A DNA stretch of 64,000 nucleotides from Deltaproteobacteria bacterium (GCA_046583355.1 JAYGCM010000018.1:1302-65301), one strand, 5' to 3'. Counted from the first letter of the stretch, positions 14,138 through 50,680 are shown. The notes: generated by a model not told the origin, from the sequence alone. Numbers and translations: made by a program.

Positions 14138-14280
14138 GCATTTTGCCGTACCACGACGCATCTGCCAGCGCATCACCTATACTGGGCATTAATCCGCTAT
14201 TGCTGAACATCCGATGTCCCCGTAGGCTTTCTTGATGCCCAGCCTTTCGGCCGGGTTGCTGGTCTGTGGAGATACCCCCA

Positions 14281-15762
14281 ATGAAGGTTCGTTTTTCGCG
14301 TTTCATCACGCTTCCCTTTGTCTGTCTGGTCGTCACTCTCGCCACGCTCTCGTCGTGCGCCAAGAAGAACGAGCCGCCTCCGGTACCGGATGGGTTGCAA
14401 ATCCTGCTTGAAGATGGCGATTCATTGCCGGGGAATTTCGTGATCCTCTCGATCGAATCCGCCAATATGGCGGCCGATCGCTCGATCTCCTTCATTGCCT
14501 CGCGGACGGGGTTGCCGTCGCTCAACGGTGTCTTCTACCGAACGCCTACAGGCGATATCCGGACGATCCTCACACCGGAGTCCGAGCAGGCCGGCGAGCT
14601 CTCCTTCACCACAGTTCGTAACCTCACCATGGCCCAAACCGGCGAGTTCGCCTTCCAGGTCGGCAACCGTCTCGACGACGACGGGCTCTTCTATTCCGAT
14701 GGCGAGACGCTGACCACGCTTGCCACGACGGATTCGGACGATGTCCTCGACGGCTTCCGGCTTCTCGGGGAATTGCGCGTTGCCAGCGGAGGTTCGGTCG
14801 CCTTCAGCGACGGAACCAGTCCCTGTATCGTGGACTCGTCAGGCGCGCAGGACCGTCTCACCTGCGACCTGCGGCTTCATTACGGGATGCCCGGTGATAT
14901 CCGCACCGTCAATGTTCCCAATGCGATGACCAACCAGAAGGCCAGTACCCTGATCCTGCAGGTCAACGCGAAAGCCGAGTTTGCCGTCGGGCTTCCGGCG
15001 CGCGGTGACGAACCCATGGTCGGCCGAATTCGTGACGGAATCTTTGAAGCACTGCTGACCCGGCGCGAGACTCTGCCGGGTCTGGGTGTCCTCACCGCCG
15101 CAAAGCCTCGCGCGATCGGCGCCAGCGGCGCGATCGGAATCGATGGGAGCTTCGACACGACCGGCGACGGCGACAAGGATACCGTACGCGTTCTCCTTTA
15201 TCGCGATGGCAATATCGAGGCGGCGGCCTCGACCTTGGATCAGACCCAATTGGGCGAGATAGTCGACCTGAACGCGGTTGCTGTCGATGACCGCGACCAC
15301 CTCTACTATACCGCCGAATTTGTGGTGGACGGCGACGAACGTGACCTCTTGCGTGTCTGGGATGGCACCGAAACCCGAGACATCATCTGGGATCGGATGT
15401 GGTACGGGGGCACGGATCCCAAGGGCCGGCGGCTGGCGATCACCGAAATCGTCCAGACTCGCGTCCTGGGCGACGGTACGGTGCTGATCATCGTGACGAT
15501 CGGCTTCTTCGAGGAGGGTACCCGTAAAATCACATCCAAGCAGCTTCTGCGTTGGCAGGACGGAGAGATCACCACGATCCTGCAGTCCAAGAGTCCGATC
15601 GGTGAGGGCACGCGCACCCTGGTCGGCTTCCAGATCGCCGATCTCAACTCGGCGGGCGACCTTCTTCTGATCGGCGAGATCAACGCGAAGTCAAACCGCG
15701 CACTTCTGCTTCTCCCGAGCGACGAAGTCTACGGCACGGCGACAAACGACGACAGCGCTTAG
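14281..15762 (+). CDS. lipoprotein of unknown function (repetitive D/G-rich, possibly beta-propeller-like)
   Basis: Signal peptide with lipobox LATLSS-C. GGAG lies 9 nt upstream of the ATG. Recurrent DG/DGT-containing segments. Confidence 0.55.
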   Translation: MKVRFSRFITLPFVCLVVTLATLSSCAKKNEPPPVPDGLQILLEDGDSLPGNFVILSIESANMAADRSISFIASRTGLPSLNGVFYRTPTGDIRTILTPESEQAGELSFTTVRNLTMAQTGEFAFQVGNRLDDDGLFYSDGETLTTLATTDSDDVLDGFRLLGELRVASGGSVAFSDGTSPCIVDSSGAQDRLTCDLRLHYGMPGDIRTVNVPNAMTNQKASTLILQVNAKAEFAVGLPARGDEPMVGRIRDGIFEALLTRRETLPGLGVLTAAKPRAIGASGAIGIDGSFDTTGDGDKDTVRVLLYRDGNIEAAASTLDQTQLGEIVDLNAVAVDDRDHLYYTAEFVVDGDERDLLRVWDGTETRDIIWDRMWYGGTDPKGRRLAITEIVQTRVLGDGTVLIIVTIGFFEEGTRKITSKQLLRWQDGEITTILQSKSPIGEGTRTLVGFQIADLNSAGDLLLIGEINAKSNRALLLLPSDEVYGTATNDDSA

Positions 15763-16928: not shown

Positions 16929-17531
16929 TTAGCGACGCTTCTTCGCGCCGGCCTTTTTCTTCTTGGCTGCGGCTTTTTTCTTCGGCGCAGCCTTTTTCTT
17001 GGCCACGGCCTTTTTCTTCGGCGCAGCCTTTTTCTTGGCTACGGCCTTTTTCTTCGGTGCAGCCTTTTTCTTGGCTACGGCCTTTTTCTTCGGTGCAGCC
17101 TTTTTCTTGGCTACGGCCTTCTTCTTCGGCGCGGCCTTTTTCTTGGCTACGGCCTTCTTCTTCGGCGCAGCCTTTTTCTTGGCTACGGCCTTCTTCTTCG
17201 CCACCGTCTTTTTGACGACAGGCTTAGTCGCAGTAGCTTTCTTCTTGCTACCGGCCTTTTTCTTGGCTGCGGCGCGCTTGGCTGCTGTGCGCTTCTTGGC
17301 GGCTTCGAGCTTCTTGCGAGCTGCTTCTTCCGAGAACTTTACGCCACCGACTTTGTAACGGCCGCGAACCTTCGGCTGGTACCGCAGGCGCATGGTGATC
17401 TTGTGCTGCTCGTAATGCTTTTCGCAGCGCCAGCCCTTGAAGGCTTTCTCGCTACAAAGAACACAAAGGCCCATGGCACGGTGCTTGCGCTGCCAGCGAG
17501 CCTGGCGACTGATTTGAGATGCGTCTTTCAT
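16929..17531 (-). CDS. histone H1-like / nucleoid-associated K/A-repeat protein with N-terminal Cys/His motif
   Basis: AGGAGG RBS 5 nt upstream of the ATG. N-terminus has C-x2-C-x9-C-x2-H. C-terminal tail is 6 x KKKAVAKKKAAP plus further AKK-rich sequence; 200 aa. Confidence 0.7.
   Translation of the reverse strand: MKDASQISRQARWQRKHRAMGLCVLCSEKAFKGWRCEKHYEQHKITMRLRYQPKVRGRYKVGGVKFSEEAARKKLEAAKKRTAAKRAAAKKKAGSKKKATATKPVVKKTVAKKKAVAKKKAAPKKKAVAKKKAAPKKKAVAKKKAAPKKKAVAKKKAAPKKKAVAKKKAAPKKKAVAKKKAAPKKKAAAKKKKAGAKKRR
16975..17215. repeat. perfect 36-bp tandem repeat array (~6.5 copies) encoding the KKKAVAKKKAAP repeats
   Basis: Unit ggcgcagcctttttcttggctacggcctttttcttc recurs head-to-tail with only silent or near-silent variants. 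Lies inside the CDS; there are no spacers, so it is not CRISPR. Confidence 0.85.
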
Positions 17532-18250: not shown

Positions 18251-19774
18251 ATGACCAACCATTCCCGCCGCGATTCGCTGAATGTGATCGTGGTGTTGCT
18301 CGATACGCTCCGCGCCGACCATCTCTCCTGTTATGGCGCCGGCCGTCGGACCTCGCCGAATCTCGACCGCATCGCGAGCCAGGCGACTCTTTTCGAAAAA
18401 GCGATCTCACCAGCCGCCTGGACGCCACCGGCGCATGCCTCGCTCTTCACCGGCACCTATCCCTCGCGTCACCGCGTGGACCGCAGCAACCTGACGTTGA
18501 GTGCAGACTTGCAACCTCTGCCGGAAGTCCTGCGTCGCGGCGGCTACCGAACCTACGGAGTCTCAAGCAACTACTGGCTCTCGCGAGAAACCTCCTTCGA
18601 CCGCGGCTTCGATGAGTTCGTGCATAGCTGGCAACTGGTCCAGACCGCGGGCACCAATGCGCCGCTGGCGCGTCAGCAGCGCAAACAGGATCTCGGCCTC
18701 GGCGAGTTGGGCGGGCCGGCGGAGACGCCGAGCAAATACGCGCAGCAGGCCAATCGGCTCTTCGAGAAGGCGACCAACAAACTTCGCAACCGCCTACAGG
18801 CCTATGATGACGGCGCCTACCGTGTCGTGAACCAGGTAAAACGCTGGATTCCACGTTGGGTCCGAGAAGAGCAGCCCTTCTTTGCCTTCCTGCATTTCAT
18901 GGAGCCGCATATCCGCTACTCCGCTCCGGGCCAATACCACCTCAAGCACGTCCCCAAGGGCGTCAGCGCCGAGCGTGCGCGCCAGGTGAATCAGGACCCT
19001 TGGCGTTTTCTCACCGGTCAAACCGAGATGACCGAAGAGGATTTCGTGATCCTCTCCGCTCTCTACGACGGCGAGATCAGTTATCTCGACTCCCGCATCG
19101 GGCAATTGCATGAAATGCTCGAGCGCTCCGGCCTGTTGGAGAATACCGTCGTCATCTTCACCAGCGACCACGGCGAGAACCTCGGCGAGCATGGTCTGAT
19201 GGACCATGCCTATTGCCTCTACGACACGCTGCTGAATGTGCCCTTGATCATTCAGGCACCAACTGAATTTACCGCCGGCGAGCGAATCTCGCGGCCGGTT
19301 CAGTCTGCCGATCTCTTCGGCACGATTCTCACGCTGGCCGGGATGGACGAAGACCCGGTCTGGGACCAGGTGCAGGCACGCAACTCGCTGCTGCCCGCGG
19401 AGGTCGCCAAGCGCAATGGGGCCGAGAACTACACGCTGGCGGAATATCGGGAACCACAGCCGCCCTTGTCCGTGCTGCGGCGACGCTTCGAAGGCTTCAA
19501 CGGAGCCTATTTCGATCGATCGTTGCGCATGGCACGGACCGAGACGCATAAATATATCTGGTCGTCGGACGGGCATGCCGAGCTCTATGATCTGACGAAA
19601 GATCCTGGTGAAGAGAAGAATCTGGTCAATATCGAGCGCGATACGGCCGCGCGGCTGGCCGGCGTAATCGACGAAAAGCTCGGGACCTTCGAAGCGCCCG
19701 ACGCCGGCGATACCGGCATCGACCTCGACGACGATACGCTCAAAAAACTCGAGCAATTGGGATACCTCGCGTAA
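18251..19774 (+). CDS. sulfatase-like protein (alkaline phosphatase superfamily) lacking the formylglycine motif
   Basis: N-terminus aligns to arylsulfatases (VLLDTLRADHLSCYG ~ ADDLGYGDLGCYG; SPNLDRIA). The C/S-x-P-x-R position reads AAWTPPAHASLFTG. Metal-site motif TSDHGE is present. Confidence 0.8.
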   Translation: MTNHSRRDSLNVIVVLLDTLRADHLSCYGAGRRTSPNLDRIASQATLFEKAISPAAWTPPAHASLFTGTYPSRHRVDRSNLTLSADLQPLPEVLRRGGYRTYGVSSNYWLSRETSFDRGFDEFVHSWQLVQTAGTNAPLARQQRKQDLGLGELGGPAETPSKYAQQANRLFEKATNKLRNRLQAYDDGAYRVVNQVKRWIPRWVREEQPFFAFLHFMEPHIRYSAPGQYHLKHVPKGVSAERARQVNQDPWRFLTGQTEMTEEDFVILSALYDGEISYLDSRIGQLHEMLERSGLLENTVVIFTSDHGENLGEHGLMDHAYCLYDTLLNVPLIIQAPTEFTAGERISRPVQSADLFGTILTLAGMDEDPVWDQVQARNSLLPAEVAKRNGAENYTLAEYREPQPPLSVLRRRFEGFNGAYFDRSLRMARTETHKYIWSSDGHAELYDLTKDPGEEKNLVNIERDTAARLAGVIDEKLGTFEAPDAGDTGIDLDDDTLKKLEQLGYLA

Positions 19775-19798
19775 GCGGGCGGCAAGGCGGAAACTACG

Positions 19799-20764
19799 AT
19801 GGCAATCTGGAATCGAAACCGGGGTGGCGGCGGTGATGCAGGCGCAGGTGGCGCGAGTCGCATTGTCGTGCCGGCCCTCACGAGGCAGGAACCTTTGCTC
19901 ATGCCAGCGCAGGAGGGGCTCAATAACTATATTATCGTGATCCTCGACAGCTGCCGCTTTGACGCCCTCAAATCGGCACAGCCGAAGACGCTCCTGAAGC
20001 TCGGCGAGCTGGAACGGCGCTGGAGTTACGCCTCTTGGACGGCGCCCTCGCATTATAATTTGCTGATGGGGCTACTGCCGCACCATAGCCCGCAACAGGT
20101 CTATGCCTCGGACTACTATAAAAAAGATTTCCTCAACTACCAGAAACGTCTGGGCGTCGAGGATATCCAATTCAAGAGTATGGTGCCGCAGCTTTTCCTG
20201 CCGACTTATTTGAAACATCGGCTGGGTTATCGCACCAATGCCTTGGTCTCCATGCCCGTGCTCAACCCGCAGACGCTGCTGAACAAGGACTTTGATCGCT
20301 ACGAATTGATGGCCAAGCATAACGATATGGACGCGATGCTTGATACCATGGAATTCCCCGAGGATAGGCCGTCCTTTTACCTGCTCAATACCGGCGAGAC
20401 GCATTACCCTTACGCCTTGCCCTCCGAGACCGAGAACGATTGGCCGAAAATCCACGGAGTCAACGGCGTTTTCAAGCATATGGGCGACAAGTTGGTGGAC
20501 GGCAAGATGGTTGAAGAAGAAGAGGAACCCGAAGAGTTCTTCGACCAACCGAAGCTCGACGCGTTGCGCCAGCGCCAGATCGAGGCCGTGACCTACCTCG
20601 ATACCGTCTTCGAGCGCCTCTTCGATATGGTGCCGAAGAATACCTTCATCACCGTCACCGCCGACCATGGCGAACTCTTCGGCGAGGAAGGCTACTTCGG
20701 TCACGGACCGATTGCCCACGAGAAGGTCTACGAAGTCCCCTTCCTTGAGGGCAAAATCCGCTAG
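19799..20764 (+). CDS. sulfatase-like protein, paralog of the upstream gene
   Basis: VILDSCRFDAL, ASWTAPSHYNLLMG (same W-T-x-P-x-H variant), TADHGELFGEEGYFGHG. Alternative start MPAQEG at 19901. Confidence 0.65.
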   Translation: MAIWNRNRGGGGDAGAGGASRIVVPALTRQEPLLMPAQEGLNNYIIVILDSCRFDALKSAQPKTLLKLGELERRWSYASWTAPSHYNLLMGLLPHHSPQQVYASDYYKKDFLNYQKRLGVEDIQFKSMVPQLFLPTYLKHRLGYRTNALVSMPVLNPQTLLNKDFDRYELMAKHNDMDAMLDTMEFPEDRPSFYLLNTGETHYPYALPSETENDWPKIHGVNGVFKHMGDKLVDGKMVEEEEEPEEFFDQPKLDALRQRQIEAVTYLDTVFERLFDMVPKNTFITVTADHGELFGEEGYFGHGPIAHEKVYEVPFLEGKIR

Positions 20765-33401: not shown

Positions 33402-34165
33402 TGGTGACGCGCAACTCTATACCCGTGCCGGCAATTTCCACCTCGATGCGAATAGTCGCCTCGTGAACGGACAGGAATTTGCGGTGCAGGGTTTCGCACT
33501 GGACGCCGCGGGCAACGCGGTAGCAGGCGCGAGCGATATCGATTTCAGCAGCGTCAGCGCCAGTGCAGTCGAGACGACTCGGCTCGATATCTCGAACAAT
33601 CTCTCCGCCGATGCACAGGTAGTGGTTGGTGGATTTGACGGCAGTAGTTTCGCTGCCGCCTACGGCTCGAGCAATTATGCCACGACGACCAGGGTCTTCG
33701 ACTCACTCGGGCGTTCGCATGAGATGACACTCTTTTTCACCAAAACCGGTGCGAATGCCTGGGAGGTCAATGTCGGCGTCAATCGCGAGGATCTTCCGGG
33801 CAGGCAACCCCGCCGGACTCCAGATCATGGGCACGACAGGCGTGACCTTCGATGGGACGGGCGCCCTGACCGCGCCGGCCCCATTGGATATCGCGGTGAC
33901 CTTCGATGGCGCGGCCGCCCAGACCGTAGGGATCAACCTGGGCACGCCAAGCACCACTCCGGGCGACGGCCGAGTCCGGCACAGCCGAGGTGGGAACAGC
34001 GGCGGCCTGGGGAGCATCATTGGCTCCGCGATTGAGCGTGCCAATGTGGAGCTGGCAAAGGAGTTCGTTGACCTCATCTCTTTGCAGCGCAGCTTCCAGG
34101 CGAATGCCCGGGTCATCACAACCAGCGATGGCCTGCTCAATGAGCTGATCAATATCGTTCGTTAG
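33364..34165 (+). pseudogene. flgE: flgE (flagellar hook protein) remnant, N-terminally truncated and frameshifted
   Basis: Frame 1 has MAIEGSGFFVL...YTRAGNFHLD...VQGF and DSLGRSHEMTLFFTKTGANAWEV. After ~33790 the FlgE-like sequence continues in frame 2 (NPAGLQIMGTTG...ANVELAKEFVDLISLQRSFQANARVITTSDGLLNELINIVR). The ~80 N-terminal residues are absent. Confidence 0.7.
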
Positions 34166-36222
34166 GGCGCGATGGCTTCGGCGGGGGCGGGCCATGAGGG
34201 AGGATAGTCGCCCAATGGCTCAGGCCCCTTTCGGCGGCGCAACTCGGCGAAAATACGCCGCGATTGCGCGAGCTGCGCCGGGGAATATTTCAAGCGCAGG
34301 ATCTGAACGCCATCATGGTCGTAGACCAGCTCAAGGCGCGGTTGCCGGGCGAGTTTGCGGGCGTCGACGATCCCGCGTGCCGATCGACTGAAATAATAAT
34401 AACCGACGCCGCGCAGCAGCAGCTGGTTGAGCTTGCGATCAGCGAAACCGGGCTTGCGTTGCAAAGCGAATTGCCTTGCCGCCCGTTGCAGAAAGCGCGG
34501 CGCAAGCGGCGCGAGCATCGGCCCCGGGATCGTTTGGTGGCCGGTGAAGTAGGGGATCCAATAGCCGCCGTCGGTCCCCACGATGAAGTCCGGGAAGAGG
34601 GCATGGCCCGCGATCGCAAAGCGTTCGCGCGGGGCGACATTCTCGCGAATCCAGGCGAATGCTTCGATATCGGCGGTTTCGACGAGATTATGGGCGGCCG
34701 GAATTTCCTCGATCCTTGTGGGCAGCGAGAGCAGCCCGAGGACGAAAGCCGTACCGACGGCCGCCCTCTGCCAGGAGTCCTGGCGTGCCAGCGGCAGCAT
34801 CTCCCCGACGGCCTGGACGCCACAACCGAGCAGGAGAGCCAGCGGAAAATAGAGAAATATCAGAACAGAATTCAACGGTACGATATTCAGAACATGGATG
34901 CCTAAGTAGGGCACAGCGCCGAGCAGAAGGAGTGCGAGCGTCCAGGCCAGAACGATCCGACTCAGACGTTCGCCGCGCAAAAGCGCGATCGCGCCGAAAC
35001 TCAGGCCGGCAAAAATCAGCAGAGGCGAGCCCACCCATTGTGTGAGAGGGAGGGATTCCCATGTCCGGAAATACTCCTCTGCGTTCAGCCCACGCAGGTC
35101 ACCAGTCCCCGACCATGAATTGCCGTCGCTGGCGAGGAACCAATGCCCCCAGACCCAATGCCACAAGCCGCGGCCATAGCGTGGCAGGAGCAGCAGCAGG
35201 GCAGCCAAGCCGCCGCCGAGCACGGGGAGAAGGAGCTTTCTCATCCGTCCACTGCCTCGTGCCGCGGCCATCTCATGGGCGAGCGTGAAGAGCAGGAGAG
35301 GAACAAGAAAAAGCGCCACACGCAGATGCACCAGGGCTACGGCGGCCGAAAGAAGAATGGCGAAAGCGCCGAGGATGGCGGTTGGTGGGCCGGCGGCCGA
35401 CGAGGATGGCCGGTGCAGGCGGCGCAGCCACTCCCAACTGACGACCCAGGCAATCGGCAGAATCGCCTGGCCGGCGACCTGGGTGAAGCGGCCCCACCCG
35501 AGATACGCACTCGGCATGGAATTGATCAGACCGACGCTGAGGGCACCCACCAGGGCAGCCGGCCGTGAGACGTGGCGGTCAAGCACCAGATAAACACCGA
35601 GGGCGGCCAGCGCATTGAGAAGTTGGCCCATCCACACCAGCGCGACAAAACCCTCCACATTGCCGAGCCAGGCCGTAGCGGCGGTGATCGCATAGAGGCC
35701 AAGGTGGTAGCGATCCAGCTCGATGGCCGGGAAGACGGGCATCGTCTGCGGTAAAAGACCGCTGCGCGCCACCTCTTCAGTCAGCATGGCATGGTGCAGG
35801 GAATCGGTAAGGGGAGGCACGGGGAAGAGATCGGCAAGCCAGGCCCGCAGGCCGACGATCAGCGCGAAGGCCAAGAGCGCCAGGGCCTCTCCCGATCCGA
35901 CGCGAAGCGTCGCGGGGCGCCGCCAGAGTTGGGCCAGGACCATCAGCCCCGCCAGGCCGATTAGGACCTGGAAAAAACCGGCCTCCAGCGGCGGCCAGGT
36001 GGGCCAGACGACGCGCAAGACGCCGGCGGCGGCGAAGAGGAGAGGCGGTAGAGCGGCGCCGATTCCGGCGGCCACGAGCCAGCCCTGGAGGCCACGAAAG
36101 CTCCGATCGAGGCCACAGGCGCCCAGCAGGGCACGGCCCGGCAAAAGCAATAGGGCGAGTGCAGCGAGTGCGGCGCAAAGTTCGGCGTGGCTCGAAGGCA
36201 TGGCTGAGGAACCTGGTATCAT
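34162..36222 (-). CDS. large polytopic membrane protein of unknown function (possible GT-C-like)
   Basis: 686 aa; >10 predicted TM helices in the first ~450 aa and a C-terminal soluble domain. No recognisable catalytic motif. Confidence 0.55.
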   Translation of the reverse strand: MIPGSSAMPSSHAELCAALAALALLLLPGRALLGACGLDRSFRGLQGWLVAAGIGAALPPLLFAAAGVLRVVWPTWPPLEAGFFQVLIGLAGLMVLAQLWRRPATLRVGSGEALALLAFALIVGLRAWLADLFPVPPLTDSLHHAMLTEEVARSGLLPQTMPVFPAIELDRYHLGLYAITAATAWLGNVEGFVALVWMGQLLNALAALGVYLVLDRHVSRPAALVGALSVGLINSMPSAYLGWGRFTQVAGQAILPIAWVVSWEWLRRLHRPSSSAAGPPTAILGAFAILLSAAVALVHLRVALFLVPLLLFTLAHEMAAARGSGRMRKLLLPVLGGGLAALLLLLPRYGRGLWHWVWGHWFLASDGNSWSGTGDLRGLNAEEYFRTWESLPLTQWVGSPLLIFAGLSFGAIALLRGERLSRIVLAWTLALLLLGAVPYLGIHVLNIVPLNSVLIFLYFPLALLLGCGVQAVGEMLPLARQDSWQRAAVGTAFVLGLLSLPTRIEEIPAAHNLVETADIEAFAWIRENVAPRERFAIAGHALFPDFIVGTDGGYWIPYFTGHQTIPGPMLAPLAPRFLQRAARQFALQRKPGFADRKLNQLLLRGVGYYYFSRSARGIVDARKLARQPRLELVYDHDGVQILRLKYSPAQLAQSRRIFAELRRRKGPEPLGDYPPSWPAPAEAIAP

Positions 36223-41691: not shown

Positions 41692-42585
41692 ATGAGTATT
41701 CACGACGATCAGTTGAAAAAGGTGCAGAACGAGGACGGGTTTCTCGCAGCCCTGGACCAGAGCGGCGGCAGCACGCCGAAGGCACTCAAACTCTACGGCG
41801 TCGAAGAGAACGAATATTCCGGCGAAGCCGAGATGTTCGACCGCATCCACGCGATGCGCACGCGCATCATGGCGAGCTCGGTCTTCGGCGGCGATCGTAT
41901 TCTCGGCGCCATCCTCTTTGAGATGACAATGGATCGCAAAGTCGAGGGCCAGCACTCGGCGGCCTACCTCTGGAACGAGAAAAAGGTCGTCCCTTTCCTG
42001 AAGACCGACAAGGGCCTGGCGGACGAAGCAAATGGCGTACAGGTGATGAAGCCGATGCCGGATCTCGATGCGCTCTGCGAGCGTGCGGTTACCAAGGCGG
42101 TTTTCGGCACCAAGATGCGCTCGGTCGTGAAACTCGCCAATGCGCAGGGAATCGACGCGATTGTCGAGCAACAATTTGCTATTGGAAAGCAGATCATCGG
42201 GCATGGTCTGGTGCCCATCCTGGAGCCCGAAGTTGATATCCATAGCCCGGAAAAAGCACAGGCAGAGTCCTTGCTTCGTGCCGCTCTTCTCGCCCATGCC
42301 GGACAACTCGCCGACGACCAGCAAATCATGCTCAAGCTGACCTTGCCCGAAGAGGACGGCTTCTACACGGAACTGATCGATCATCCGCGCGTCATCAAGG
42401 TGGTCGCACTCTCGGGCGGCTACAGCCGTGACGAGGCAAACACGCGATTGGGCCGGAACAAGGGCATGATCGCGAGCTTCTCGCGCGCGCTGACGCAGGG
42501 GCTTTCGGCCAAGCAGAGCGACGCCGAGTTCGACAAAATGTTGGACGGCTCGATCGAGTCGATCTTCCAGGCCTCCCGCACATGA
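41692..42585 (+). CDS. fda: fructose-bisphosphate aldolase, class I (Fda/PRK05377 type)
   Basis: [52 protein letters not shown] match the staphylococcal-type class I FBA along its whole length. Confidence 0.85.
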
Positions 42586-44249
42586 GCTTCGAGCGAGACC
42601 GGCGCGGCCCCGGATCTGCGGGTCCGCCGCGCGACGATAGACGAGGACCGCCACGCGACTTCAGCCCCGGTGGACCGGGTCGCGACGACCGTCGTGGTCC
42701 GCCACGCGGGGATTTCCGTGGTCCGCCACGCGACGATAGACGAGGACCGCCACGCGACTTCAGCCCCGGTGGACCGGGTCGCGACGACCGCCGTGGTCCG
42801 CCGCGCGGGGATTTCCGTGGTCCGCCACGCGACGATAGACGAGGATCGCCGCGTGACTTCAGCCCCGGTGGGCCGGGCCGCGATGACCGCCGTGGCCCGC
42901 CGCGCGAGGATTTCCGTGGTCCGCCGCGCGACGATAGACGAGGACCGCCACGTGATTTTCGCGGCGAACCGCGCCGCGACGAAGGCAGACGCCCAGCCGA
43001 GGCGCGCGACGGCGGCAGCGAGCGGCCCGAACCCCGCAAGCCATTGCTGCGTCACGTTCCAAAAACAGACCAGGTTCAATGCCCGCATTGGCCCGCCTGC
43101 ATCGGCTGCCCGGGGATGGGGCGCTCCTATACGAAGCAATTGACCGTCAAGCATCAGAAGCTGGTGGATGCCTTTGCCGAGCATTCCGAACTCGAAGGCG
43201 TACAGATTCTCAGCCCGGTCGGGAGCCCACGGGCCACAGGCTACCGCAATCACGCCAAGCTCGTCTTCCGGGCGCGCCGCAACCGCGAAACGCTTGAGGA
43301 CGAAGTGATCCTTGGCGTCTTCAAGCCGGGCACCCATAGCGTCATGCCGGCCGATTCCTGTATTGTCCACCATCGCCGCCTGCAGCCGCTCCTGCGCGTG
43401 CTGCGCAGGGAAGTCGAGGAACTCGGGATTCCGATCTACGACGAGCGGACCGGGGAGGGTGCGCTGCGCTTCGCCTTGGCCCGGACCTCCGATATGGCCA
43501 GCCGAACCCATCTGACCCTGGTCTCCGCCACCGACAAGATCCAGAAATTGAACACCTTGGTGCTGCGCATGCAGCATAAGTTCAAGGAATTGGAGTCGGT
43601 CTTTCTCTGCGTGAACGCAGAGGGCGGCAACCAACTCCTGACCGATGATATCCGGCAGATCAAAGGCCCGCCGGCGCTGCGTGAGAAATTCGGCGACCTG
43701 ATTCTGGAGTCGCGCTCGGGCGCTTTCCTGCAGGCCAATACGGAGATTGCTTCCCGCATCTACGATACCGCAGCACGCTGGCTGGATGCTTGGGCGGCCG
43801 AGGGTGTCATCGACCTCTATTGCGGGGTGGGCGCGTTGGGTCTCGCCGCAGCAGGGCGCAATACGCGCCTGCTGGGCATCGAAGCGTCCAAGTCGGCGGT
43901 CGAATGCGCGACGGCGAATGCGAAACGCATGCAGCGTCATGGCGCTGAATTCGTCGCAGCACCTGCTGAAGATGTTGGTAAAATCGCGGCCGAAAAGGGC
44001 TTCGCAAAGCCGGCGGCACTGATCGTCAACCCGCCGCGGCGAGGTTTGAGTCAGGAAGCGGGTGACGCGATCCTGAAACTCGCGCCGCGCCGGATTCTCT
44101 ATGTCTCGTGTAACCTGGAGACATTGACGCGCGATCTACTCGCGTTCGTGCGCGAGGGCTGGGTGGTTAGCCGAGCACGTATGTTCGATATGCTGCCGCA
44201 AACGCCGCATATCGAGATCATGGTCCTGATGGAGCGTCGGGCTACCTGA
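42582..44249 (+). CDS. 23S rRNA (uracil-C5)-methyltransferase RlmD/RumA family with R/D/P-rich repetitive N-terminal extension
   Basis: ATGA overlap with the fda stop. Residues 14-125 are 16/17-aa RDDRRGPPR(G)DF... repeats. A 4-Cys cluster follows ([12 protein letters not shown]), then SAM-MTase motifs ([16 protein letters not shown]). Confidence 0.85.
42620..42960. repeat. 99-bp tandem repeat (~3.3 copies) encoding the [33 protein letters not shown] super-repeat
   Basis: Near-identical 99-nt units visible directly in the DNA, inside the CDS. Confidence 0.8.
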
Positions 44250-48636: not shown

Positions 48637-49166
48637 CAAGCGTCTCATTGGCGAACTCATCCTGCCGCAGCCTTGGCATCTCTTCGACCACGAAGAGCAA
48701 GGCAGGATGGAACTTATGGAGCCGCGCGACCCCGCGGAATAGCTACCGCTTCCGCCTGGATTATAGACAGGGCGCGTTACGACCGATCAGGACAAATGCG
48801 CCCCAACGTCGAATCCAGCCACCGCTCAAGCCCCTGTTCTATAATGAGTTGGTGGTTGGCCTCCCGAGGCCTTCATGCATACTCCAACGCTATCCTCCTT
48901 GCTCTTCGGTCGAACGGATGCGGGCGCTTGCCCCATCCTGCGCACCGTCCTGGCGGCGATGGTGTTCGCCGTCCTGGGCTGGCACACATTCTTTCGACGA
49001 CGATACCGAACTCCAGATCTGGAACGTGCTTACGCAGGCGGGCCATCCCGAGGCGCAGGCAGCAGCGCCTCGTAGGCGCGCGGCGGCGCTCCGGGTCGAT
49101 TCGAATTTCGTCGGCGCGGGCTTGCGCCGAGCAGGCGTCTCGGCTGCGCGTGCGGACCGCCGAGTT

Positions 49167-50522
<1,356 letters not shown>

Positions 50523-50680
50523 CTCCCACGGCGCCGGCTCTCCGCATTTCTAGCTGCGATCCGGGACATTGAGCAAGCGTGAACTCGGGGGCGAACTTCC
50601 AATTCGGCAGGCCACCCGCCGGGCGGCATCGCATCGGGCCATATTGACCTCCTGCGAATCGCCGGATATTGACCAGCGCC

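Follow-up and report, generated by a model that had tools for sequence, protein, structure and literature searches.

Threonine-nucleophile enzymes of the alkaline phosphatase (AP) superfamily are known already, and sulfatase-fold sulfotransferases were described, on genetic grounds, in 2025. In Halobacterium salinarum, the sulfatase-fold proteins VNG1056C/Agl30 (membrane-associated) and VNG1057C/Agl31 (soluble and cytosolic) are needed for N-glycan sulfation, either of them confers glycan sulfation when expressed in Haloferax volcanii, and the best structural match of Agl31 is 6HHM (Zaretsky et al., mBio 2025, PMC11980604). In MCR-1, H395 and H478 touch phospho-Thr285 (PMC5216409). Here we analyze two adjacent genes, ORF1 and ORF2, in a stretch of 64,000 nucleotides from a Deltaproteobacteria bacterium (GCA_046583355.1 JAYGCM010000018.1:1302-65301; hereafter the window), for which the closest reference genome is a Candidatus Binatia metagenome-assembled genome. 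Both encode sulfatase-like proteins without the C/S-x-P/A-x-R signature of type I sulfatases; they read W-T-x-P-x-H instead, with Thr in the Cys column and His in the Arg column, and this motif is conserved well beyond chance and is not decay. We propose that ORF1 and ORF2 are bicistronic, cytoplasmic, metal-dependent Thr-nucleophile AP-superfamily transferases that tailor glycoconjugates with sulfate from 3'-phosphoadenosine 5'-phosphosulfate (PAPS), a reading that we regard as evenly poised. We found no description in the literature of the soluble W-T-x-P-x-H clade, its signature or its linkage to PAPS and glycans, and literature searches on a Thr-type sulfatase, a PAPS-using AP-superfamily sulfotransferase, STM4013 or a sulfatase-like/Sat/CysC cluster returned nothing relevant.

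Predicted active sites of ORF1 and ORF2

The gene pair and its putative nucleophile motifs are laid out as follows.

18251-19774, plus strand: ORF1, 507 aa, predicted soluble Thr-type protein of sulfatase/phosphonate monoester hydrolase (PMH) fold; public entry MFP6663363.1, 'sulfatase'
18413-18454, plus strand: ORF1 candidate nucleophile motif AAWTPPAHASLFTG, W57-T58-x-P60-x-H62, placed by alignments, homolog conservation and the position of Thr58 at a helix N-terminus in the model
19775-19798, plus strand: intergenic spacer of 24 nt, with AAGGCGGA ahead of the ORF2 ATG
19799-20764, plus strand: ORF2, 321 aa, compact and very highly conserved, predicted Thr-type AP-superfamily core enzyme; public entry MFP6663364.1, 'sulfatase-like hydrolase/transferase'
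20030-20074, plus strand: ORF2 candidate nucleophile motif ASWTAPSHYNLLMGL, W80-T81-x-P83-x-H85, aligned with T-F-P-N-H of a nucleotide pyrophosphatase/phosphodiesterase (NPP)

Both proteins match the Pfam family PF00884 (Sulfatase), with E 3e-49 for ORF1 and 1e-10 for ORF2. A first-pass annotation of this DNA had called them sulfatase-like with a retained metal site, and every residue string that it quoted is present in the translations, with TSDHGE at residues 304-309 of ORF1, and LDSCRFD at 49-55 and TADHGE at 287-292 of ORF2. ORF1 also matches SGSH_C and PF01663 in Pfam, the latter at 55 bits and overlapped by PF00884 at 168 bits; ORF2 has no Pfam match to PF01663, which is the best-scoring domain of neither protein. 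No NCBIfam model reaches its cut-off for ORF1 or ORF2. The top model for ORF2 is NF038075, the STM4013/SEN3800 family hydrolase (E 2e-18, 66.7 bits against a cut-off of 250; ORF1 scores 46.8 bits), the best EptA model gives 36.6 bits against a cut-off of 561, and the weak matches to EptA, MCR, LtaS and YejM span the metal motif. A transmembrane (TM) segment, a signal peptide or any hydrophobic segment was found in neither protein, on which basis both are predicted to be cytoplasmic. The first ~34 residues of ORF2 are variable. The genes are probably bicistronic because only the 24-nt spacer separates them and Shine-Dalgarno-like AAGGCGGA lies 7 nt 5' of the ORF2 ATG; no terminator-like site was found between them. 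A role in anti-phage defense of the PglZ type was considered and dropped, as PADLOC gave no matches for ORF1, ORF2 or the partner proteins and Pfam PglZ reached only E 0.03.

The translations read AAWTPPAH at residues 55-62 of ORF1 and ASWTAPSH at residues 78-85 of ORF2. HMMER alignments with solved FGly (formylglycine) enzymes place ORF1 Thr58 on the FGly/Cys column, where no Cys or Ser is found, and His62 on the Arg column, pairing 'PASPAR' of 4uph and 'LSSPSR' of 6pt6 with 'WTPPAH'. This agrees with the earlier placement of the motif at the FGly position. With an ORF2-family profile, Thr81 falls on the catalytic Thr of Xanthomonas NPP ('SYPSLTFPNHYTLVTG' against 'SYASWTAPSHYNLLMG'), and the C-terminal metal motif aligns to that of phosphonate monoester hydrolase and sulfatase.

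A profile search had been suggested to see whether a W-T-x-P-x-H clade exists; it does, it is large, and its members conserve the motif. ORF1 has more than 3,500 relatives at E <1e-10 and ORF2 more than 6,000 at E <1e-5. Among the 120 best relatives of each, W is found in 117/117 of the ORF1 family, T in 109, S in 6, A in 2, P in 115 and H in 103, and W, T, P and H are each invariant (121/121) in the ORF2 family. Across 120 clusters of the latter family, conservation reaches 95% or more at 154 positions. When 1.84 billion cluster representatives were searched exhaustively, 445 ORF2 relatives scored below 1e-10, and those of full length, at identities as low as 33%, retain D-S-x-R-x-D, W-T-x-P-x-H, E-T-H-Y-P-Y and D-H-G-E-x-x-G-E-x-G-x-x-G-H-G-P. 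The six Ser variants of the ORF1 family form one 468-aa subclade. The two Ala variants also lack the metal ligand Asp306; they appear to show what true decay looks like in this family, and by that measure the window proteins are not decayed.

The AlphaFold2 model of ORF1 (pLDDT 90) has Asp18 at the end of strand 1, Asp306-His307 after strand 299-305, and Thr58 at the N-terminus of helix 58-67, right after strand 46-52. In the model, Thr58 thus appears to occupy the canonical nucleophile position, which answers the question that the first-pass annotation had left to structure prediction; Cys61 of EfAS has been described at the same helix-start position (PMC12421950). Foldseek searches with the ORF1 model gave S1 sulfatases, PMH and choline sulfatase as top matches (TM-score ~0.65, E 1e-25), and 6HHM is a strong match. 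The suggestion of a distinct clade that is unable to form FGly gains support from the conservation of the motif and from the modeled position of Thr58. Thr is most likely the nucleophile, and the Ser that takes its place in some homologs could serve likewise.

The remaining putative active-site segments lie around these motifs.

18296-18322, plus strand: ORF1 LLDTLRADH, residues 16-24, with the first metal-ligand Asp18 at the end of strand beta-1, aligned with the metal Asp of 4uph
18896-18922, plus strand: ORF1 FMEPHIRYS, with E218-x-H220, equivalent to EfAS His220 and MCR-1 His395 and aligned to 'PH' of 4uph
19157-19210, plus strand: ORF1 FTSDHGENLGEHGLMDHA, with D306-H307-G-E309 as metal ligands and H319 at +12, where sulfatases have Lys
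19937-19966, plus strand: ORF2 VILDSCRFDA, with metal-ligand Asp50
20387-20416, plus strand: ORF2 NTGETHYPYA, with E200-x-H202
20651-20713, plus strand: ORF2 TVTADHGELFGEEGYFGHGPI, with D289-H290-G-E292 and H302 at +12

Set against EfAS (residues from PMC12421950) and MCR-1 (residues from PMC5216409), the positions correspond as follows.

First metal ligand: D20 in EfAS, E246 in MCR-1, D18 in ORF1, D50 in ORF2
Nucleophile (predicted for ORF1 and ORF2): C61 in EfAS, T285 in MCR-1, T58 in ORF1, T81 in ORF2
Signature Arg position: R65 in EfAS, H62 in ORF1, H85 in ORF2
Mid-domain His: H220 in EfAS, H395 in MCR-1, E218-x-H220 in ORF1, E200-x-H202 in ORF2
Metal Asp-His: D311-H312 in EfAS, D465-H466 in MCR-1, D306-H307 in ORF1, D289-H290 in ORF2
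Glu after the metal His: E468 in MCR-1 (orients H478), E309 in ORF1, E292 in ORF2
Residue at +12 from the metal His: K324 in EfAS, H478 in MCR-1, H319 in ORF1, H302 in ORF2

The metal ligands and active-site His are 95-100% conserved in both families; among ORF1 homologs, D18 and R21 are kept in 115/115, E218 in 115/121 and H220 in 120/121. Mutating the sulfate-binding Arg/Lys cripples EfAS (PMC12421950), and in the alignments of ORF1 and ORF2 the sulfate-binding Arg and Lys of true sulfatases are both replaced by His, the Lys at +12 of type I sulfatases being H319 and H302, respectively. In the aligned segment, neither protein has an equivalent of the EfAS-type K110/H112 Lys/His pair after beta-4. 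Altogether, the predicted catalytic set of Asp, Thr, His, D-H-G-E and His(+12) matches that of Thr-type phosphoethanolamine transferases. The Lys-to-His replacement in both proteins goes beyond the first-pass annotation, as do the genomic links to glycan biosynthesis and PAPS synthesis presented below.

ORF1 and ORF2 had been described as tandem paralogs. They are adjacent and homologous, as profile-profile comparison of the two families gives a probability of 98.7% (E 3e-16, 243 columns), but the kinship is distant. BLASTP of one protein against the other aligns only two short patches, 31% over 58 aa and 26% over 135 aa (E ~1e-7), which, together with the deep family of each protein, rules out a recent tandem duplication. 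ORF2 corresponds to the catalytic core of ORF1 minus a helical insert (~residues 130-205) and the C-terminal subdomain (335-507), and it belongs to a family that is 63-70% identical across Binatia, Planctomycetota, Acidobacteriota and Bacteroidota. We consider the two to be old, distant paralogs from separately conserved families, which have W-T-x-P-x-H ... E-x-H ... D-H-G-E-x9-H as their common signature. The identical substitution had been taken as an argument against random decay. That conclusion stands, but because ORF1 and ORF2 are not recent tandem duplicates, the substitution points to shared ancestry of a Thr-type clade and not to two independent events.

Gene neighborhoods

The links to glycan biosynthesis and to PAPS synthesis come from the neighborhoods of homologs. 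We examined 104 ORF2 loci, 53 of them with at least 3 kb on both sides, although the loci are not phylogenetically independent. In 21 of the 53 well-flanked loci, a tandem pair of NPP-like genes lies directly downstream of ORF2 on the same strand, the start codon of the downstream NPP-like gene often overlapping the ORF2 stop. One protein of the pair is TM-anchored and the other has a signal peptide, their nucleophile motif is S-P-V/I-A-W-S, and a gene for a conserved 3-TM protein comes next. An ORF1-type gene is present in 10/53 loci, encoding either a soluble protein or one of ~700 aa with five TM segments fused to an ORF1-like domain (V-T-L-S-S-H), and some AP-superfamily partner lies within 3 kb in 27/53. 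The order in Planctomycetota is ATP sulfurylase (Sat), ORF2, adenosine 5'-phosphosulfate (APS) kinase (CysC), NPPa, NPPb and the 3-TM protein; five loci of this phylum show the Sat-ORF2-CysC order, and 8 of the 104 loci overall have Sat close to ORF2. Also recurrent are LPG_synthase_TM directly downstream of ORF2, followed by GT87/MptA_B, YdjY and GT2, and, as other neighbors, Bac_transf, a PEP-CTERM-type deacetylase, UDP-glucose dehydrogenase, CysS and a metallo-beta-lactamase (MBL)-rhodanese protein. CysS, the MBL-rhodanese protein, ComA and a sulfotransferase-like gene, present in other loci, were counted as a link to sulfate. The AP-superfamily partners, LPG_synthase_TM, GT87, GT2, Bac_transf and a polysaccharide deacetylase were taken to tie ORF2 to the envelope.

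Several of these neighborhoods merit description in their own right. The operon that follows ORF2 homologs in Acidobacteriota and Planctomycetota (L003:9494-14746 and equivalents in ~25 loci, e.g., L006, L010, L056, L075, L097 and L100) encodes a TM-anchored NPP-like protein of ~720 aa with an N-terminal AYIGPGAGF, a secreted NPP-like protein of ~650 aa and a 3-TM protein of 270 aa. A sequence search of the NPP-like partner against the Protein Data Bank (PDB) gave no match, and NCBIfam names none of NPPa, NPPb and c6. Divergent from the ORF2 operon in Acidobacteriota are the genes for the five-TM ORF1-like proteins, or 'c4' type (L075:1287-3455, minus strand; L081:100-2436, minus strand; L088:3215-5374, minus strand). 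These proteins of ~700 aa combine five predicted TM helices with an ORF1-like sulfatase domain, carry the motif V/F-T-L-S/T-S-H and end in C-terminal L-K-S-L-G-Y-V as ORF1 does; their architecture is EptA- or LtaS-like, with a catalytic domain of arylsulfatase/PMH type. In Mesorhizobium huakuii plasmid p_3 (NZ_CP050298.1; L112, 42-9924), an ORF2 homolog with 46% identity and A-S-W-T-A-P-S-H closes an operon with genes for two radical-SAM proteins, alanine racemase, DUF3050, a TldD-related peptidase and three hypothetical proteins. A homolog of ORF2 at 27% identity is also found on Agrobacterium Ti plasmids, pTi-SAKURA among them (L113).

Homologs of ORF1 at 41-60% identity are located inside polysaccharide clusters. 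One bacterial locus contains RGP, ORF1-like, ORF2-like, GT1 and methyltransferase genes; another Wzx, Lyase_1, ComA, ORF1-like, RGP, GT1 and acyltransferase; and a third Bac_transf, deacetylase, Wzx, GT1, ORF1-like, methyltransferase, a weak sulfotransferase match, IspD-like, CofD and HAD. The Poribacteria locus reads GT4, Wzy, sulfatase, GT4, ORF1-like, GT4, CapK, Bac_transf and Wzi. In ORF1-type polysaccharide clusters with ComA (phosphosulfolactate synthase), or with CofD, an IspD-like nucleotidyltransferase and a HAD hydrolase (L101:6093-6920 and L105:11729-15165), these genes hint at unusual sulfo- or phospho-lactyl decorations of the glycan.

The best matches of ORF1 in cultured organisms are haloarchaeal megaplasmid genes (33-38% identity, A-P-W-T-L-P-S-H), which adjoin glycosyltransferases, a flippase and further sulfatase-like genes. 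Of the 120 haloarchaeal relatives listed, all carry D-H-G-E with His(+12), W-T-x-P-x-H is present in 117, and TM segments are absent from every one. On pHMA411 of Haloarcula marismortui (L111, 7365-12869), one glycosylation cluster holds three distinct sulfatase-like genes: one of ORF1 type with W-T-L-P-S-H, a variant with W-S-L-P-S-A and an intact D-H-G-D...H(+12), and a third of 398 aa with H-T-P-T-S-F and the ORF2-like T-S-D-H-G-E-L-L-G-E-Y-G-F-F-G-H. This trio parallels the agl cluster of Halobacterium, which likewise has three genes of the AP superfamily.

In the window itself, a Pfam scan of ~36 genes found neither FGE nor anSME among them. In the 720-nt region upstream of ORF1, the search gave neither an Rfam match nor a tRNA, and sigma-70-like promoters and terminators did not rise above background; a regulatory RNA there was dropped. 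Beyond this region and divergent from ORF1, a 200-aa ORF (16929-17531, minus strand) that is histone-H1-like in appearance has no Pfam match; it has a Cys-rich N-terminus, CVLCSEKAFKGWRCEKH, and a Lys/Ala-rich tail encoded by 6.7 copies of a 36-nt tandem repeat at 16960-17200 (95% matching, AAPKKKAVAKKK units). Further upstream, 14266-15762 (plus strand) encodes a predicted lipoprotein of 498 aa without a Pfam match, whose signal peptide ends in the Cys lipobox LSSC. Three long ORFs with high third-position GC, at 34162-36222 (minus strand, 686 aa), 42420-43940 (minus strand, 506 aa) and 48648-50582 (plus strand, 644 aa), match no Pfam family at E <1e-4.

Candidate reactions

From the predicted active sites and the neighborhoods of homologs we infer Thr-based covalent catalysis on a metal site, together with glycoconjugate tailoring. 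The metal, held by Asp, Thr, Asp and His, would activate the Thr hydroxyl (T58 in ORF1, T81 in ORF2), which would attack an activated ester or anhydride donor to give a covalent Thr-O-X intermediate; X would then go, still on the cytoplasmic face, to a hydroxyl group on a sugar of a glycoconjugate precursor. In the proposed case, X would be sulfate from PAPS, and the proteins would act as sulfatase-fold sulfotransferases like Agl30/Agl31. PAPS-derived sulfate is favored because of the Sat/CysC linkage and the Halobacterium precedent; taken alone, it is the weakest step, and we put it forward tentatively and with some doubt. ORF2 looks like a conserved cytoplasmic core enzyme that is paired, depending on lineage, with ORF1-type, membrane-anchored ORF1-type or exported NPP-type partners. 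It is tempting to speculate, although we think it somewhat unlikely, that W-T-x-P-x-H ... D-H-G-E-x9-H is the signature of prokaryote-wide sulfatase-fold sulfotransferases, comprising the ORF1, ORF2 and haloarchaeal Agl31 types, in which the sulfatase scaffold is run in the synthetic direction via Thr-O-sulfate. More boldly still, the operon of ORF2, two NPP-like genes and the 3-TM gene, which in Planctomycetota has Sat and CysC at its flanks, might act as a relay, sending an activated sulfate (or phospho) group out of the cytoplasm on a lipid carrier for modification there.

Several observations weigh against sulfate transfer by this pair. The pair lies outside any glycan cluster, alone among housekeeping genes, with no Sat, CysC or NPP-like gene within the 64-kb window. 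The contexts of ORF2 are heterogeneous (they also include Aldolase_II, HtpG, a TonB receptor and 5-FTHF cyclo-ligase), and the dependence among its loci lowers the weight of the counts. The catalytic residue set is known for phosphoryl-diester transfer, in MCR-1 and NPP, and for no characterized sulfuryl transfer. In the one ORF1-type cluster with a weak match to a canonical sulfotransferase, a second sulfotransferase would be less needed. The ORF2 model is only moderate (pLDDT 67, from an input alignment that is deep but not diverse) and is loosely like sulfatases and LtaS; Foldseek searches with it gave nothing below E 1e-3. The likeness to Agl30/Agl31 is drawn from their published description, which proposes no active site, donor or mechanism for them (PMC11980604).

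The main alternative, which we consider rather unlikely, casts ORF1 and ORF2 as phospho-substituent transferases or phosphodiesterases in which Thr attacks the phosphorus of a soluble donor, making them a cytoplasmic counterpart of EptA, LtaS and OpgB. The donor would be a CDP- or GDP-activated alcohol or a lipid phosphodiester, and X would be phosphoglycerol, phosphoethanolamine, phospho-lactate or phospho-sulfolactate placed onto a glycan, unless the diester were simply hydrolyzed. The residue set and its spacing are identical to those of MCR-1 (E/D, Thr, His, D-H-G-E, His +12), T-x-P-x-H is the NPP motif, ORF1 scores on PF01663 and weakly on the EptA, MCR, LtaS and YejM models, ORF1-type clusters encode makers of phospho-ester building blocks (ComA; CofD with IspD-like and HAD), and every characterized Thr-nucleophile member of PF00884 transfers phosphoryl groups. 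Phospho transfer nevertheless leaves the Sat-ORF2-CysC arrangement unexplained, enzymes of this fold known to transfer phospho-X are anchored in the membrane and work outside the cytoplasm, whereas ORF1 and ORF2 are predicted to be soluble, and for sulfatase-fold proteins of glycosylation clusters the Halobacterium precedent points to sulfate. It is improbable, by contrast with either kind of transfer, that ORF2 is a housekeeping nucleotide hydrolase of sulfate activation, either a 3'-phosphoadenosine 5'-phosphate (PAP) phosphatase replacing CysQ or an NPP-like APS/PAPS pyrophosphatase, with ORF1 doing something separate. In Planctomycetota, ORF2 has Sat on one side and CysC on the other, a setting in which genes with cysQ-like functions are common; this would fit, as would the NPP-like nucleophile segment of ORF2; the high cross-phylum identity in an otherwise variable context is what a universal small-molecule substrate might produce. 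Yet its commonest neighbors are translationally coupled exported or membrane AP-superfamily proteins and envelope glycan genes, which would be surprising for a PAP phosphatase, and Sat is nearby in few of the loci.

That the proteins are genuine sulfate-ester hydrolases using Thr for FGly is very improbable. The fold and the top structural matches are those of S1 sulfatases, and ORF1 is publicly named a sulfatase. However, because Thr replaces FGly, ORF1 and ORF2 are probably not sulfatases; in addition, the sulfate-binding Arg and Lys are both His, the K110/H112-type pair is absent from the alignment, and the proteins are predicted to be cytoplasmic, with homologs in biosynthetic rather than degradative clusters. 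Ser- or Thr-nucleophile enzymes of the AP superfamily are not known to show more than trace sulfatase activity. Least credible of all is a non-catalytic binding or scaffold role, which the first-pass annotation had entertained in view of the missing canonical nucleophile and which might draw on the Ala found in two ORF1-family members. The metal ligands and active-site His are all conserved over hundreds of sequences from several phyla, and the Ala variants are rare and lack a metal ligand, so this suggestion can be set aside.

Should the preferred reading of sulfate transfer from PAPS be correct, many bacteria and archaea would sulfate their glycans with a class of enzymes that escapes current searches for sulfotransferases, and the Sat-ORF2-CysC operon would be a ready test system. 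The proposal also offers a mechanistic hypothesis for the Halobacterium sulfatase-fold sulfotransferases. For annotation, the names 'sulfatase' and 'arylsulfatase A-like' are attached to thousands of genes from Binatia, Planctomycetota, Acidobacteriota, Bacteroidota, Poribacteria and haloarchaea whose products are predicted to be unable to make FGly, and counting them as sulfatases inflates metagenome estimates of the capacity to degrade sulfated glycans. A simple rule would set them apart: Thr at the Cys position, together with His at the Arg and Lys positions.

Comparison with known systems

Of the named families, NF038075 (STM4013/SEN3800) is closest to ORF2 and of similar size (261-aa profile), but ORF2 scores far below its cut-off and hence is not a member. 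The Mesorhizobium huakuii operon with its two radical-SAM genes presumably resembles the STM4011-4015 neighborhood.

The fold of ORF1, its two subdomains and its metal ligands Asp and Asp-His are those of EfAS (9koq), ArPMH (4uph), choline sulfatase (6g5z) and S1 sulfatases. These enzymes differ in having Cys/Ser converted to FGly in place of Thr, Arg in place of His, Lys(+12) in place of His, and the Lys/His pair after beta-4, for which ORF1 has no counterpart. EfAS, the best fold match of ORF2, was therefore discarded as a Thr-type precedent, being an enzyme that converts Cys61 to FGly (PMC12421950). As analogs for a Thr nucleophile, the first-pass annotation had named phosphonate monoester hydrolase and LtaS-like enzymes. 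The LtaS analogy is sound, whereas PMHs are FGly enzymes (PMC12421950), and 4uph and 2vqr align as CxPxR-type; the valid set is NPP, LtaS and EptA/MCR-1.

Within this set, MCR-1/EptA/LptA and LtaS share with ORF1 and ORF2 the PF00884 family, the predicted Thr nucleophile and, by sequence register, Zn1-type ligands Asp/Glu, Thr, Asp and His. Also shared are D-H-G-E, with the Glu orienting a His 12 residues past the metal His, and a further His (H395 in MCR-1) that corresponds to E-x-H. In contrast to the soluble ORF1 and ORF2, these transferases begin with a domain of several TM segments, work in the periplasm or beyond the membrane and use a phospholipid donor. The sequence around the Thr also differs, NCBIfam scores lie far below the cut-offs, and the scaffold and C-terminal subdomain of ORF1 are of arylsulfatase/PMH type. 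The Xanthomonas NPP (PDB 2gsn, PF01663) resembles ORF2 in its nucleophile segment, T-F-P-N-H-Y-x-L-x-x-G against T-A-P-S-H-Y-N-L-L-M-G in the same register, with the Thr nucleophile at a helix N-terminus. The profile match is nevertheless weak (E 0.2) and confined to the N-terminal segment, and the C-terminal metal motif of ORF2 goes with PMH and sulfatase.

Agl30 and Agl31 come closest in proposed function. By their published description, they resemble ORF1 and ORF2 in having the AP-superfamily sulfatase fold; Agl31 is cytosolic too, and 6HHM is a match common to Agl31 and ORF1. The haloarchaeal clusters with ORF1 homologs, equivalent to the Agl cluster, hold two or three sulfatase-like genes, and the ORF1 homologs there carry W-T-L-P-S-H. 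No H. salinarum entry is among the 120 haloarchaeal homologs listed, in a search that started from a Haloarcula clade member. Haloferax Agl7 was considered as a further precedent and dropped, since its fold is not stated in the paper. The pairing of a soluble with a membrane protein in Agl30/Agl31 recalls that of ORF2 with the membrane-anchored c4 type in bacteria. Agl30 and Agl31 differ in being encoded in a glycosylation cluster, a setting that applies to ORF1-family homologs but not to the window copy. Taken together, these comparisons suggest that the pair is an evolutionary intermediate, combining an arylsulfatase/PMH scaffold with the catalytic residues of a phosphoethanolamine transferase and the nucleophile motif of an NPP.

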